Shown here in pieces: positions 28,053-39,334 of a DNA stretch of 64,000 nt (within the stretch, counting starts at the first letter, position 1; each line of letters starts with the position of its first letter). Origin of the DNA: a virus; the IMG/VR virus record IMGVR_UViG_3300009155_000044, positions 1 through 64,000 of that record; one strand, written 5' to 3'. The notes beneath the pieces were generated by a model that worked only from the letters and a program-made list of their open reading frames with translations, had not been told where the DNA came from and did not search any database. The translations under genes and the position numbers were made by a program.

Positions 28053-28323
28053 GTAACTCGTTGATAATCAACGCACTAGCAATTCGCGCCCCGCGACTCC
28101 CTAAGTCGCTGAAAATCAACGACTTAGAGAATCGTATTCTCTACTGTTCCGTAAAGAGGTAAGCGCAAGAGTTTTTTGAATTTAAATTCTTTTTAAGCGC
28201 TCGCAACCTGTTGATTTTCAACGACTTACGCGAACGCGGGGCGCGAACTCATAACTCGTTGATTTTCAACGACTTATCAATTCCCGTTCGTTGACGCAAA
28301 AAAAGCCCACCCCGAAGGGTGGA
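28053..28323. repeat. twin-palindrome element, copy 1 (inverted copy 28053-28126 plus forward copy 28203-28323)
   Basis: GTTGA-N3-TCAAC pairs flanking CGCGGGGCGCG; CCCACCC-CGAA-GGGTGG terminator. Confidence 0.85.
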
Positions 28324-28344
28324 CTTGAATTAAATTGTCAACAA

Positions 28345-28953
28345 TTATTCTGCAAAAAGTTTTGGTACAGACTTATCGTCTTCTAGGCGACCAGAGTACT
28401 TCATCCACAAGGTGAGATCAATATCGGCAATGCTCATGAATGGGAAGTTTCCGCGAGCTAAGAAAAGAAATTGTTTTTCTAATGCGAGATACTGCTTAAC
28501 ATTCGTTGGAGTACTCTGGGGAACGTCCACCACTTGGTTCTCGCGCAACCATTTGAGAATGTGGGTATCGAGTACGGCACATTGGCAATTTGGGCGGGTA
28601 TGAAGCAAAAAGAATCGTGCGGTCTTCTGACCAACTCCATGCACATTCATCAGATCCTCTAGGGAACAGGTTGCAAGATCGAGATCGACCGCACCCATTA
28701 CTGCTTTGGTTAGACGATTATACTGTCCGATCCGAGAGGCACATAGGGCATTGTAGATTCCGATCTCACCCAAGTTCTTCAGCACTTCAAAAGGTGTTTC
28801 TCCTTCGATGGTGTGAAGTAGTTTGGCGAGGCACTTAGCTGCATAGTCGCTATTCTTCCCAGCGCAGAACAACCCAAACAAAAAGAATGATTGGAGTTCA
28901 GCAGTGGTGCGAGTGAAGTTTGTGATCTTCGTGGGATCAATTAGTAGTTGCAT
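28345..28953 (-). CDS. HhH-family DNA glycosylase (OGG/N-glycosylase-like)
   Basis: L..VHGVGQKTARFFL HhH motif; AVLDTHIL catalytic Asp. Confidence 0.8.
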   Translation of the reverse strand: MQLLIDPTKITNFTRTTAELQSFFLFGLFCAGKNSDYAAKCLAKLLHTIEGETPFEVLKNLGEIGIYNALCASRIGQYNRLTKAVMGAVDLDLATCSLEDLMNVHGVGQKTARFFLLHTRPNCQCAVLDTHILKWLRENQVVDVPQSTPTNVKQYLALEKQFLFLARGNFPFMSIADIDLTLWMKYSGRLEDDKSVPKLFAE

Positions 28954-29010
28954 GTGAGTAAGGTAGCAGTTGTCTGTGGGTTTGTCTATAATTATTTTCA
29001 AATATATTTA

Positions 29011-29170
29011 AGCTCTGAAGCATATAGTGTTAGAAGGAGAGGCGAATTGATAACTCGTTGATTTTCAAGGGGTTACGCGGGCGCGGGGCGCGAATTGCTA
29101 GTGCGTTGATTATCAACGACTTGTGACTCTGCATTTACGGGCGCAAAAAACCCGCCCCGAAGGGTGGGCT
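29011..29170. repeat. twin-palindrome element, copy 2 (lacks TTGACA)
   Basis: Near-identical to copy 4. Confidence 0.9.
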
Positions 29171-29183
29171 TTAAGTTAGGCTT

Positions 29184-29588
29184 TTAACTGTCTGGGTTCT
29201 CCGCTGAGATCACCCCCCCGTGTTTGAGATTGTAAGTGCTCCAGTCACTATTTCGCTCATCTTGCTGATCAACTAATTTGTTCCATGCTTCAATAGTGAT
29301 AAGTTTGCCGCTTTCCCATACCATTTCATTAGAGCAATTTCTACAAAAATAATCAAGCTTATCACACGCTGGACAGAAAAAGTCGTTACCGTCAGGAAGA
29401 TTGAACCAACAAAAGTACTCATCTTCCTGACCATGTAGCCTATCCTTTTCTCGCCGAGATTGAATAGTGCGGTTGCTCTTACAGTATGCGCAGTTGCCAT
29501 GGTTGCGGCAACTGCGGTCAAAAACTAAGCTGCGGCGATACTGCACACGCTTTTCTTTACCGTATTTGATTGCTTTGTCTAGGCTCAT
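29184..29588 (-). CDS. hypothetical Zn-finger protein (CRNHGNC.YC; CPAC...CRNC)
   Basis: ORF track; truncated duplicate at 37082. Confidence 0.7.
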   Translation of the reverse strand: MSLDKAIKYGKEKRVQYRRSLVFDRSCRNHGNCAYCKSNRTIQSRREKDRLHGQEDEYFCWFNLPDGNDFFCPACDKLDYFCRNCSNEMVWESGKLITIEAWNKLVDQQDERNSDWSTYNLKHGGVISAENPDS

Positions 29589-29815
29589 ATTTTTGGTTCG
29601 GTGTGTGAAACGATGTCTTCCATTGTTTGGGTGAGCGTTTTATATGCGATGGAAAGGCGCATTGCTTGTTCGCGTGTGCATTGTGAAGCAGCATACGCTA
29701 CTGCTTTTTCGTAGCTGTGCCAGTACTTTTCCACATCTGCCGCATACATGATGATTCTATCAAGTTCAGGATCAACGGTGACATTGAGAGCATCGATGAC
29801 GGTAGTGTTTGCCAT
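29585..29815 (-). CDS. hypothetical protein
   Basis: ORF track, coupled to the next gene. Confidence 0.6.
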   Translation of the reverse strand: MANTTVIDALNVTVDPELDRIIMYAADVEKYWHSYEKAVAYAASQCTREQAMRLSIAYKTLTQTMEDIVSHTEPKI

Positions 29816-29949
29816 ATTAATGTTGGTTATATTAAATTAATTTTAAAGTCCGCATGGGAATCTTTTCATCAGAAGCGCCAATATAGCACCGATCAATAAA
29901 ATGTAAAGAATTAAAAATGGAAACGGATTGGGAAATTTTGGAGTCATAA

Positions 29950-30297
29950 CTAATTGATAATGATGATTTTTTTTCCGCAGATTAAAACGGCGGAAGCTTG
30001 CGTGACTGGATTTCCAGATTCATTTTCATAAAAGTAGTCAAAGAGGTATGGATTGTAGTTGACTGCTGTGAGTTTTTTATAGTAGTTGAAGCTTCCTGAT
30101 TCAGTGCCGCAAATGTAAGCATGAACGTTTTTCCGCTTTTGTTGCAAGACTCTCTCTCTTCCAGCCTTGGACACTCGAAAGGTAACGTTGTCTAAAGCGA
30201 CAGAGTCAGCATGGCGCACCACGCGCCAGACTCCGTTGATTTTTTTCTGAACGGAAATCTTTTTCTTTTGTAGGTTAAAGTAACAGCGAGTGTCCAT
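29950..30297 (-). CDS. conserved hypothetical phage protein (YFNL...KAGRERVL..KRKNVHA)
   Basis: ORF track; start reassigned to the ATG after the promoter. Confidence 0.7.
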   Translation of the reverse strand: MDTRCYFNLQKKKISVQKKINGVWRVVRHADSVALDNVTFRVSKAGRERVLQQKRKNVHAYICGTESGSFNYYKKLTAVNYNPYLFDYFYENESGNPVTQASAVLICGKKIIIIN

Positions 30298-30377
30298 GAG
30301 AATATTGTACAGTAGAACGGGAGATGTGCAACACTTTTTTTCAATTAAAATGCATTGAAATTTTTGGAAAAACGCGG

Positions 30378-30541
30378 TTGACAAGCGATGGAAGATTTTT
30401 TGTTATTAGAGGCGGCGAATTGCTAAACTGTTGAAAATCAACGACTTACGCGGGCGCGGGGCGTGAATTGCTAGCGCGTTGATTATCAACGACTTGTGAC
30501 TCTGCATTTACGGGCGCAAAAAACCCACCCCGAAGGGTGGG
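30378..30541. repeat. twin-palindrome element, copy 3
   Basis: TTGACA-N17-TGTTA, two GTTGA-N3-TCAAC, terminator. Confidence 0.9.
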
Positions 30542-37687: not shown

Positions 37688-37768
37688 GATCCCCTAGTAT
37701 ACCAGACTGCGGGAAAGGCGCAAGACATTTTATTCATTTAAAAGATTTTCTTTTCTTGAATTTCGCCC

Positions 37769-37984
37769 TTGACAATGGCGCGGGGCGTATTTGTTATACG
37801 GAGGGGCGAATTGATAACTCGTTGATTTTCAAGGGGTTACGCGAACGGGGGGCGCGAATTGCTAGCGCGTTGATTTTCAACGAGTTACAACGACGTATTT
37901 TGCTAGTGCTAGTATAACAGAAGCCCACCCTTTCGGGTGGGCCGACTTGCTAGCGTTAGGAGTGCCCACCCTTTCGGGTGGGCT
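37769..37984. repeat. twin-palindrome element, copy 12, followed by two tandem terminators
   Basis: Palindromes at 37821 and 37869; CCCACCCTTTCGGGTGGG twice. Confidence 0.9.
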
Positions 37985-37996
37985 AGTTTACTAATG

Positions 37997-38179
37997 TCAG
38001 ACATCGCATCCTTGACTCTGAAGGGACTTTTTAATTTCCTCCCATCGGCAAGCAGCTTGTTCAGCAAGCAGAGATGCTTCAACGTAAGCGTTAAGCGCTT
38101 CGCTCAATCTCTTTTCAAGACTGAGGATGATGATTTCATCGGTGAGGTGGAGGGATTCGGTTGCAGTGGTTTTTTCCAT
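37997..38179 (-). CDS. hypothetical protein
   Basis: ORF track; start reassigned to MEKTT. Confidence 0.5.
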   Translation of the reverse strand: MEKTTATESLHLTDEIIILSLEKRLSEALNAYVEASLLAEQAACRWEEIKKSLQSQGCDV

Positions 38180-38290
38180 GTTTTTACTATACGCGATGGA
38201 TGCGGGAACGCAAGTTTTATTTTTTCTTTTCAGAACTTTTTTCAAGGCACGAAAAAGCCCACTCTTTCGAGTGGGTTAAAGTTGATAGCG

Positions 38291-38482
38291 CTAGAGGCTT
38301 GTGATCCAATAGACTTTCGCGTTGTCAATGGCGTACATAGTTGCGCGATACAAGCGGCACTGCACTGATCGACCGCCATGCTGTTTCCAAAGCGCAATCG
38401 TTTCCGCGTGGAAAGCATCTGTCCAGCCATTGCTGTAACCTAAGTTTTTGTAACCTGCTTCAATCATTTCTTGCTCATTCAT
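38291..38482 (-). CDS. hypothetical protein
   Basis: ORF with TTGCGT...TATAGT promoter. Confidence 0.55.
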   Translation of the reverse strand: MNEQEMIEAGYKNLGYSNGWTDAFHAETIALWKQHGGRSVQCRLYRATMYAIDNAKVYWITSL

Positions 38483-38618
38483 AGTCCCCTACTATAGGCG
38501 AGGGATGGCAGAACGCAAGTTTTATTTTGAACTTTTAGACGTTTTTTTCACGGCGGAAAAAGTTCCCAACGGAAGAAAAAAAGCTTGCGTTTCTTTCTCC
38601 ATGGGGTAAAGTGAAGGC

Positions 38619-38786
38619 ATGAACGAAATCACTAAAGCACAGAAATTGGCCATAGCTAAAATCACCGCATGGGAAAAAAAGATGTCAGAACTTGACACCT
38701 ACGATGAAATTGCCGATGCGTTAGAGCATGAACGGGATGCGCTAGAGTTCGGACGGGACAGCGCAAAGTATAACGGCGCACACTAA
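38619..38786 (+). CDS. hypothetical protein (55 aa)
   Basis: Hand translation MNEITKAQKLAIAK...; TTGCGT...TAAAGT promoter; terminator at 38793-38811. Confidence 0.55.
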   Translation: MNEITKAQKLAIAKITAWEKKMSELDTYDEIADALEHERDALEFGRDSAKYNGAH

Positions 38787-38838
38787 CCAAACAGCCCGCC
38801 CGAAAGGGCGGGCATCTAAACCTTAACACAAAATCAAA

Positions 38839-39033
38839 ATGACAAATCCGAATCCTAACTCTAACTCAATTTACAACATCCAAGAACTGGCGGATGTGTT
38901 ATTCAACACTAAAAATTTTAGCGGCAGTCAGATGAGAGCCATTAAAGAATGGGAGGATGAAAACGGCATCCTAACGCTGGACGAAAAGGTTGCCGCAATT
39001 CAGTTAGCGAATAAGATGTGGGACAACGCCTAA
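38839..39033 (+). CDS. hypothetical protein
   Basis: ORF track; terminator at 39047-39072. Confidence 0.6.
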   Translation: MTNPNPNSNSIYNIQELADVLFNTKNFSGSQMRAIKEWEDENGILTLDEKVAAIQLANKMWDNA

Positions 39034-39334
39034 CGCTAGCAAGTCGGCCCACCCTTCGGGGTGGGCTTTTTTGTTAGACTAGCGCTAGCAAGTACCCCCC
39101 CCATTTCTCAAAAAGATGTTAGAGCTATCCTAACAGAAGCGGCGGGGGGGACATTCTCCTCAATCTACGACTAGTCTCCAAACCAAAAGAACCAAACAGC
39201 GCTCTCCAGACCACCCCCCCCAATTAAAAAAAACCAAACCTAAAAAACACTAAAATCCCCGAACAAAAACAGAAAAAAAACCAAACGCCCAAAACTAGAA
39301 ATCAAAAAAAACAGAAAAAAGTGTAAAAAAAAAA

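Follow-up and report, generated by a model that had tools for sequence, protein, structure and literature searches.

A cassette array of repeated regulatory modules with a putative twin operator in an uncultured siphovirus-like phage

The IMG/VR virus record IMGVR_UViG_3300009155_000044 is a single contig of 120,073 bp that is classed as linear and has an estimated completeness of 93%; the window analysed here comprises its first 64 kb (64,000 nucleotides). The region between 28 and 39 kb is the sole long minus-strand gene block within the window and has a GC content of 42–46%, compared with about 34% overall. It contains about 21 small genes (28345–38482, minus strand), which are separated by repeated intergenic elements. 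A first-pass annotation had described these as about twelve promoter/twin-palindrome/terminator elements delimiting small-gene cassettes, and such an array was indeed found, consisting of twelve mutually alignable elements (E1 to E12) between 28051 and 37982.

The palindrome GTTGA-N3-TCAAC has 22 exact matches in the window, spanning 28060–37881, where 0.07 are expected by chance, and is absent from the remaining 110 kb of the 120-kb genome. The hairpin sequence CCCACCC-N4-GGGTGGG, with at most one mismatch allowed, was matched 12 times versus 0 expected. The two palindromes start exactly 48 bp apart in 12 of 12 elements, with one or two mismatches in palindrome 1 of E2, E4, E8 and E12. A TTGACA-N17 box was found in nine of the twelve elements and only within the array; its downstream half, first given as TGTTA, reads TG(T/G)TA. 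The start of TTGACA is always 52 bp ahead of palindrome 1, and the nine elements share an indel-free core in which, counted from the start of TTGACA, TG(T/G)TA lies at +23 and palindromes 1 and 2 lie at +52 and +100, respectively. The distances from the core to the leftward −35 box and to the terminator vary among elements.

Each module is composed of a leftward, leaderless sigma70-like promoter, an AT-rich tract, the rigid core and the intrinsic terminator of the upstream minus-strand unit, and the modules are 65–95% identical to one another. As previously proposed, the GC-rich hairpin would end a minus-strand gene: its T-run is on the minus strand, so that it is predicted to terminate the unit on its right. 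Predicted terminators, which are 7–10-bp hairpins rich in G–C pairs with a minus-strand T-run, were present in at least nine modules, and 31 terminator-like sites were counted in the region versus 12 in shuffled controls.

E2 (28954–29170) contains the promoter of gene 28345–28953, TGTTA at 29028 with no TTGACA, palindromes at 29057 (degenerate) and 29105, and a terminator hairpin at 29151–29168. E3 (30298–30545) has the leftward promoter TTGCAC...TACAAT with a leaderless ATG at 30297, TTGACA at 30378, palindromes at 30430 and 30478, and a terminator at 30524–30541. In E4 (31119–31365), the −10 box (31124–31129) and the −35 box (31149–31154), both on the minus strand, are accompanied by TTGACA at 31200, palindromes at 31252 and 31300, and a terminator at 31346–31363. 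The same arrangement was seen in E5 (32134–32383; −10 at 32140–32145, −35 at 32162–32167, TTGACA at 32223, palindromes at 32275 and 32323, terminator at 32364–32381) and in E6 (32739–32993; −10 at 32747–32752, −35 at 32769–32774, TTGACA at 32818, palindromes at 32870 and 32918), where the terminator hairpin (32966–32991) differs from the CCCACCC-N4-GGGTGGG type. E7 (33764–34046; −10 at 33816–33821, −35 at 33838–33843, TTGACA at 33889, palindromes at 33941 and 33989) belongs to a unit with a leader of about 50 nt, and its terminator (34026–34043) is a compensatory variant, CCCACTC/GAGTGGG. To the right follow E9 (36088–36336; −10 at 36096–36101, −35 at 36118–36123, TTGACA at 36168, palindromes at 36220 and 36268, terminator at 36314–36335), E10 (36775–37024; −10 at 36783–36788, −35 at 36805–36810, TTGACA at 36856, palindromes at 36908 and 36956, terminator at 37002–37023), E11 (37283–37537; −10 at 37296–37301, −35 at 37318–37323, TTGACA at 37369, palindromes at 37421 and 37469, terminator at 37515–37536) and E12 (37688–37984; −10 at 37696–37701, −35 at 37718–37723, TTGACA at 37769, palindromes at 37821 (degenerate) and 37869), the last with two terminator hairpins at 37924–37941 and 37965–37982.

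E1 and E8 are variants with three palindromes, one inverted spacer and no TTGACA, each preceded by an array of 15-bp iterons. The left iteron array (27862–27990) holds about seven copies of GTTGCAAATAnnnnn with a 15-bp period, then a plus-strand terminator-like hairpin. In E1 (28051–28326), palindromes were located at 28060, about 28108 (degenerate), 28210 (palindrome 1) and 28258; the first spacer is inverted, and a relic leftward promoter and a terminator (28303–28326) are present. The right array, with seven copies of AGTTGCAAATAGnnn at a 15-bp period (35485–35590), lies in a segment (35448–35590) that also holds the promoter of gene 35250–35447, and it is conserved in a close relative, L025. 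E8 (35615–35787) has palindromes at 35624, 35672 (palindrome 1, degenerate) and 35720, the first spacer again inverted, and a terminator at 35765–35786. The two variants are 87% identical and, together with their iteron arrays, flank a 7.5-kb block. In several lineages (the window, L025, L090 at about 4700–4790, and L033), an iteron array adjoins a twin or triple palindrome of the variant kind, the iteron unit being the 15-bp GTTGCAAATA in the window and L025, the 11-bp AAATAGCAAAT in L090 and the approximately 19-bp CCTAACACTACC in L033. The TTGCAA core of the iterons resembles the −35 box of the early promoters. Such arrays may function as origins or may be bound by a lineage-specific protein of the phage.

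The first-pass annotation had offered redundant replication or recombination origins as one account of the whole set. All elements, or E1 and E8, would then act as origins, either via an R-loop in the GC-rich spacer or via iterons and bending sites that assemble an initiator. The iterons abutting E1 and E8, which are kept in L025, L090 and L033 with lineage-specific units, are consistent with this idea, as is the occurrence of the palindrome between iterons and repA in a plasmid-like contig and also upstream of dnaA. However, ten of the twelve elements are without iterons, and the elements strictly alternate with small-gene promoters and terminators. To our knowledge, there is no precedent for twelve origins within 10 kb. 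With iterons adjoining only E1 and E8, redundant origins did not hold up, and an origin function for the elements is considered very unlikely.

Between the elements, there are small genes with their own leftward promoter, as first described, although their number per cassette is one to five rather than one to four. They include an Ogg-HhH-like gene (28345–28953), an L5 gp82-like gene (29950–30297), GP88 (31438–32133), DUF932 (33005–33763), a SprT-like gene (34271–34603) and two WYL_2 genes (30843–31118 and the C-terminal part of 36349–36774), all on the minus strand. The conserved array families in five relatives are GP88, SprT-like, DUF932, WYL_2 and L5 gp82. The leftward promoter takes the form cTTGCRC-N17-TATAGT-N8-ATG; cTTGCRC-N17-TATAGT with an A/T-rich tract of about 45 bp ahead of it precedes 11 of 13 promoter-proximal genes. 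As the −10 box is placed 8 nt before the ATG, leaderless mRNAs are predicted. Shine–Dalgarno sequences were found at 12 of 143 genes genome-wide, corresponding to background, and at none of the internal cassette genes, and no gene class showed a signal; upstream regions in the whole genome are A-rich, most clearly at −3 and −8. No enrichment of the Bacteroidetes −7 motif TAnnTTTG was seen ahead of genes. A sigma-54 reading of TTGC(A/G)C was rejected, since the GG expected 10 bp upstream is missing. At the right end of the array, where minus-strand transcription starts, two promoter-bearing units without palindromes were found (junctions within 38180–38562, minus strand): the promoter of gene 37997–38179, which comes with a terminator (38258–38275), and the promoter of gene 38291–38482, which is the first unit of the array.

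The full palindrome measures 25–29 bp. A scan of IMG/VR with CGTTGA-N3-TCAACGAnTTA revealed more than 118 contigs, many of them with multiple copies, and 498 unique sites among the matches listed yielded the consensus CGTAAsTCGTTGA-N3-TCAACGAsTTACG. The first-pass annotation had considered both a boundary element bound by a protein and extrusion as a cruciform. A covariance analysis of the arms argues against extrusion, revealing the arms to be conserved as sequence, with compensatory pairs being very rare. Variation at the two S positions is independent (CG 102, GC 93, CC 85, GG 79), and deviations from the consensus are one-sided across the 498 phage sites, even at flank positions that had not been used in site finding. 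Within the window, compensatory changes in the 12 copies amounted to 0 of 22 palindrome pairs versus 1 of 7 terminator pairs (one CG-to-UA), and several conserved outer positions are non-complementary in 8–10 of the 12 copies. Single-strand folding pairs palindrome 1 with palindrome 2 and places the spacer at the tip; Watson–Crick pairs at the free S position were observed in 33–47% of these cross pairs and in 40–53% within a palindrome, so cross-pairing is not favoured and is at or below chance, and the palindrome loops are not complementary. The spacer is GC-rich, yet it shows no excess of structure over shuffled controls (median z about 0), with the exception of a 58-bp class that has an extra hairpin. 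Conservation of the arm sequence without a need for pairing points to a duplex site read by a protein of two-fold symmetry. From these sequence comparisons, the palindrome most likely binds a dimeric protein as a duplex rather than forming a hairpin, in agreement with a predicted protein-bound boundary element.

A literature search with the motif string returned primer noise only. Readings of GTAAC...CGA as an extracytoplasmic function (ECF) sigma promoter or as RpoE-like were discarded, the spacing falling 4–8 bp short of that required, and the consensus sequences of CRP/FNR, Fis, NrdR, LexA, parS and dif did not agree with the palindrome in geometry or sequence.

The same core would also be compatible with small-RNA genes, in which TTGACA-N17-TG(T/G)TA drives a rightward RNA of about 150 nt that contains the palindromes as hairpins and ends at the bidirectional hairpin; such an RNA would either lie antisense to the 3' terminus of the adjacent gene or act as a protein sponge. 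In favour of this, the −35/−10-like box is held in a rigid register, its 17-bp spacer keeps its length while the sequence diverges (also in L025), a lineage with 58-bp spacing has a plus-strand terminator after the second palindrome, and the predicted folds surpass shuffled controls in stability (z = −2 to −6). However, fold stability follows trivially from the presence of palindromes, compensatory changes are all but absent from the roughly 500 sites, non-complementarity is frequent in the conserved outer arms, and no Rfam match was obtained. Furthermore, the −10-like hexamer lacks the key A at −11, and in this phage the T-run of the hairpin is on the opposite strand. A small-RNA function is thus judged distinctly improbable, if somewhat less so than an origin function.

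The palindrome is not confined to phages. The exact 25-mer was found in 26 stretches of the GTDB genome set, which belong to Bacteroidota, Fibrobacterota, Verrucomicrobiota (including three Akkermansia records) and Lentisphaerota, the sole exception being a phage-like contig binned to Enterobacterales; a few of the 26 stretches are phage-like contigs inside metagenome-assembled genomes (MAGs). Five genomes were scanned for the 17-bp core with at most one mismatch, using a reversed, equally palindromic sequence as control. This gave 2 sites in Flavipsychrobacter, 5 and 6 in two Fibrobacter genomes, 8 in Akkermansia and 14 in Verrucomicrobiales, compared with 0–1 matches per genome for the control. 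The bacterial sites are intergenic and typically lie 100–280 bp upstream of genes such as dnaA, argS and a conserved Fibrobacter operon, and a plasmid-like Verrucomicrobiales contig has five TTGACGGTTGAC iterons on one side of the site and repA on the other. Where the 25-bp palindrome precedes dnaA, argS and the Fibrobacter operon (L148, L149 and L157; Akkermansia and Fibrobacter chromosomes), it is followed after 5–20 nt by a second conserved motif, GAATGTTCCA(CA). One GAATGTTCCA copy forms part of the palindrome TGTTCCACATGGAACA; the motif may be a partner site. No autoregulated transcription-factor gene was found beside the bacterial sites, where only secreted or membrane proteins and housekeeping genes were seen. 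MAG binning proved unreliable for host calling, phage-like contigs being found in Verrucomicrobiales, Flavobacteriaceae and 'Enterobacterales' bins.

In the phage genome, the repressor search revealed no recognisable regulator. Helix-turn-helix (HTH), ribbon-helix-helix (RHH), HU, Rrf2 and WhiB families were absent among 89 phage open reading frames (ORFs), as judged from the 25 listed of 39 matched families, and among the 125 array ORFs of five relatives; an HU/IHF gene (IHF, integration host factor) is likewise absent from the phage genome. A relationship to WhiB and actinophages, prompted by the leaderless mRNAs and the homologues of L5 gp82 and gp88, was dropped, as the phage has no WhiB. 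The bacterial sites together with the lack of a phage regulator favour a host protein as the ligand.

The ligand may instead be encoded by the phage, as an unrecognisable small early/middle or virion-delivered protein that shuts off or times early transcription on all modules. The stoperator network of Cluster A mycobacteriophages and TF1 of SPO1 are models for such a protein. It would fit that the site is far commoner in phage contigs than in bacteria, that many array ORFs are without annotation, and that a weakly sigma-like gene (E = 0.04) and a zinc-ribbon gene lie beside the array. Against it are the lack of DNA-binding families among the listed matches of the phage and among the array ORFs of relatives, and the fact that the site recurs as a conserved motif on the chromosomes of Akkermansia, Verrucomicrobiales and Fibrobacter, where copies precede housekeeping genes. 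We consider a phage-encoded binder unlikely, but it ranks above the other alternatives.

As to the nature of a host protein, each palindrome arm, wATCAAcgasTTA, matches the IHF consensus WATCAANNNNTTR (tCAA-N4-TTA, with a weak W/A preference ahead), the position frequencies over both arms being T92 C93 A99 A95, N4, T88 T91 A86. The two IHF kinks are 9 bp apart (bioRxiv 10.1101/382655), and the two AA/TT steps of the palindrome have this same 9-bp spacing. The contexts of the sites are also of the IHF type, namely promoter upstream regions, an iteron origin, the vicinity of dnaA, and tRNA/integrase junctions. An IHF/HU-family host factor, BHFa, has been described for Bacteroides (PMC6606824). 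In contrast to the asymmetric E. coli IHF sites, the palindrome is perfectly two-fold and has an extra conserved CGAs and S per arm. All bacteria checked have 2–5 HU/IHF genes each, and their presence is therefore uninformative. Given the consensus match, the AA/TT step spacing and the contexts, an IHF/HU-family homodimer is the leading candidate, to be taken as a tentative lead only.

Comparison with relatives revealed that the 48-bp spacing is fixed within this lineage but not universal. Among 217 unique pairs, the spacing was 50 bp in 92, 58 bp in 31, 42 bp in 24, 48 bp in 21 and 51 bp in 15. The TTGACA box of relatives faces the pair from one or both sides, and its distance from the pair clusters at 34–36, 43–46, 52–54 and 62–64 bp, with counts inflated by lineage duplicates; this periodicity of about 10 bp suggests helical phasing. 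The order of gene start, leaderless promoter, AT-rich tract, TTGACA, twin site and terminator was the same in the inspected lineages.

The close relative L025, which has 82–83% nucleotide identity, the same 52/48 register and the same iterons, lacks 32190–32787, i.e., gene 32397 and one element. Positions 496–646 of the L025 reverse complement align equally well to E5 and E6, and the junction falls anywhere within 151 bp of shared homology inside the core, matching the prediction of unequal homologous recombination. L025 also lacks genes 34271 and 34894, which sit within a unit, so that some indels bypass the elements. Traces of duplication are present in the window itself: gene 37082–37282 is a truncated copy of 29184–29588 (92% identity), E9 and E10 have 95% identity over 264 nt, a stretch that takes in a remnant of the 3' end of gene 36349, and E2 and E4 are 95% identical. 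The gene order WYL_2, gp82, SprT, DUF932, GP88 in the relatives L090 and G007 differs from SprT, DUF932, GP88, WYL_2, gp82 in this phage; cassette order is not invariant between lineages. G007 (147,748 bp) contains the same array genes about 124.4 kb apart, with identical tblastn matches (L167 and L168), and the record probably represents a genome of about 124 kb that was assembled as a concatemer or with terminal redundancy.

Of the mobile cassette system that the first-pass annotation had proposed, cassette turnover is borne out by the cassette missing from L025, the duplicates and the hybrids, whereas site-specific recombination found no support. An integron-like system would have the twin palindromes fold as an attC-like single-strand hairpin that serves a dedicated site-specific recombinase. 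One strand does fold palindrome 1 against palindrome 2 with the spacer as the tip, the elements bound cassettes, and the one-cassette difference from the relative coincides exactly with an element. However, a search for tyrosine (PF00589) and serine (PF00239) recombinases found neither in the genome, which has an estimated completeness of 93%, complementarity across the arms does not exceed chance, and it is lacking in the loops. The L025 junction may lie anywhere in the 151 bp of homology, as for homologous recombination, and genes were gained or lost also inside units, away from the elements. The elements resemble integron attC sites in being imperfect inverted repeats that mark the limits of cassettes and enclose a centre of variable length, whereas the phage has no integrase and no selection for intra-strand pairing, its units each have their own promoter and terminator where integron cassettes are promoterless and share one common promoter, and its palindromes also occur singly in bacterial chromosomes. 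An integron-like mechanism is the least probable of the readings weighed here and is regarded as extremely unlikely.

The closest resemblance is to the promoter early stem-loop (PeSL) cassettes of T4-type phages, which are small promoter/AT-rich tract/stem-loop modules among ORFans and mediate indels and recombination mini-circles (Arbiol et al. 2010, PMC2839356; Comeau et al. 2014, PMC4122927). In both systems, a repeated intergenic unit comprises a strong sigma70-like early promoter, an AT-rich tract and a terminator stem-loop, is located in a hyperplastic region of small genes without annotated function, and recombines in a way that explains indels between close relatives. The analogy drawn by the first-pass annotation was therefore sound, as repeated promoter and terminator modules flank small accessory early genes and the indel of a relative ends inside a module. 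It is an analogy and not membership, because the virus is siphovirus-like, unrelated to T4-type myoviruses and without similarity to deposited phages; because its modules, at 220–260 bp, are much longer than PeSL motifs; because its mRNAs are predicted to be leaderless while PeSLs end in a Shine–Dalgarno sequence; and because a putative twin operator is added, made up of rigid twin 25–29-bp palindromes with a GC-rich spacer and a divergent TTGACA box. Neither the rigid twin palindrome nor the GC-rich spacer or the divergent box is described for PeSLs, and the integron features tested were not found.

The stoperators of Cluster A mycobacteriophages are 13-bp asymmetric single sites that occur genome-wide and are bound by the phage repressor (L5 gp71) in lysogens. 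They are the nearest parallel to the array in having many copies of one, here putative, protein-binding site in short intergenic gaps of one direction, an arrangement that would allow control of all units at once and a halt to elongation. The array differs in that its sites are long palindromes in fixed pairs, are restricted to the early array of a phage without integrase or recognisable repressor, and are also found in bacterial chromosomes.

These data are best explained by an array that forms the early region (host-takeover/accessory) of a lytic siphovirus and consists of a composite regulatory module in repeated copies; the twin operator is best read as a newly described, widely conserved pair of putative protein-binding sites. 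Each module would first terminate the upstream minus-strand unit. It would then offer two duplex sites of 25–29 bp, (CG)TAAsTCGTTGA-N3-TCAACGAsTTA(CG), 48 bp apart over the GC-rich spacer, with the TTGACA-N17-TG(T/G)TA box rigidly placed and aimed at them. Beyond the AT-rich tract, the sigma70-like promoter would start the next unit as a leaderless mRNA. We infer that the palindromes dock a dimeric protein that binds or bends DNA in a sequence-specific manner. The host is its most likely source, because the site is multi-copy in Verrucomicrobiota and Fibrobacterota chromosomes and present at a plasmid origin, while the phage has no recognisable regulator. Binding at all modules would co-regulate or insulate every early unit together; the protein could activate the leftward promoter architecturally from upstream, form a roadblock against the convergent TTGACA promoter, or do both. 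Since the modules are 65–95% identical, homologous recombination between them would delete, duplicate and reorder cassettes. Taken as a whole, a PeSL-like early-gene cassette array with a twin operator bound by a host-supplied protein is given an even chance of being correct.

Several findings weigh against this explanation. No cognate binding protein was found, and a transcribed RNA would account just as well for the rigid register of the inward-pointing TTGACA box. When both half-sites change symmetrically, the result looks like a compensatory change, and a hairpin that is read sequence-specifically may, formally, be the bound form. The twin spacings of 42, 48, 50 and 58 bp share no single helical phase. 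A looser scan of bacteria gave more than 120 matches, and these relaxed-pattern matches are in part chance terminator hairpins, as their outer flanks covary (Watson–Crick 0.60 vs 0.28 expected), 17 of 120 follow a tRNA gene at a distance of at most 40 nt, and many of the tRNA-following ones have T-runs. Because the looser set is contaminated in this way, the claim of bacterial sites is limited to the multi-copy genomes, and the solid cases are those of Akkermansia, Verrucomicrobiales and Fibrobacter only. Finally, the sampled bacterial regions have 55–63% GC, whereas the phage has 34–37% GC and makes no use of Shine–Dalgarno sequences. These two properties would fit a Bacteroidota host better than the sampled bacteria, with the host still within the Fibrobacterota–Chlorobiota–Bacteroidota (FCB) and Planctomycetota–Verrucomicrobiota–Chlamydiota (PVC) groups.

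The array is set in a siphovirus-like genome that encodes a 2728-aa tape-measure protein, Pol III alpha, DnaB, ribonucleotide reductase (RNR), terminase, PhoH and 13 tRNA genes. No close relative among deposited phages was found by nucleotide or protein searches. In Rfam, tRNAs alone reached the gathering threshold, two other matches being at chance level (E about 1), and PDB sequence searches with the DUF932, GP88 and sigma-like ORFs returned nothing useful. Adjoining the array, a block of PhoH, zinc-ribbon, weakly sigma-like, ERCC4 nuclease and terminase genes is constant in the inspected lineages. The 187-aa ORF just after PhoH (41465–42028, plus strand) has stretches like region 2 and region 4 of an ECF-type sigma factor; its sole Pfam support, Sigma70_r2 at E = 0.04, is under the family cut-off. 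It is preceded by a C-x2-C...C-x2-C zinc-ribbon protein with an acidic tail (40996–41355, plus strand), and both are kept in the relative G008 (41% and 50% identity, respectively). The two genes may constitute a phage sigma/anti-sigma pair for middle or late genes, as far as their sequences tell. At the boundary between the array and the plus-strand genes (39090–39330), a C7...G7 inverted repeat encloses ATTTCTCAAAAAG and TGTTAGA; the repeat and both motifs are conserved in L090. Then follow about 150 bp of nearly only A and C (39200–39300: A 53%, C 33%, G 6%, T 8%).

Elsewhere, inteins or LAGLIDADG domains split four essential genes, namely those of the terminase large subunit (1479-aa ORF, window 43994–48433), the RNR large subunit, DnaB helicase and Pol III alpha (L120:2425-5202, L121:305-2899 and L121:6375-8159), and several HNH, GIY-YIG and NUMOD3 genes are also present. 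The genome further encodes a SET-domain protein, three FkbM methyltransferases, sulfotransferases, glycosyltransferases of families 6 and 11, ThyX and UvdE. A run of small plus-strand ORFs at 14000–22000 of the window has a GC skew of +0.18 to +0.38, far above that of the remainder of the window.

In a wider view, the palindrome and its cognate dimeric protein may represent a new DNA-architectural system of FCB/PVC bacteria, covering Verrucomicrobiota and Fibrobacterota and possibly Bacteroidota, which an uncultured aquatic clade of 105–150 kb siphoviruses would have co-opted in fixed pairs in order to switch or insulate early units and to scaffold cassette recombination; this reading is possible but judged less likely than not. 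If the palindrome binds a host architectural protein, the whole host-takeover programme of these phages would be wired to one host factor. The motif would then be a host-prediction marker for hundreds of orphan viral contigs, and an uncharacterised regulon or architectural protein would exist in Akkermansia, other Verrucomicrobiota and Fibrobacter, with sites near dnaA, argS and a plasmid origin. For synthetic biology, the modules may offer compact, self-insulated, leaderless expression units. With regard to phage evolution, shuffling at repeated regulatory cassettes extends beyond the T4-type phages.

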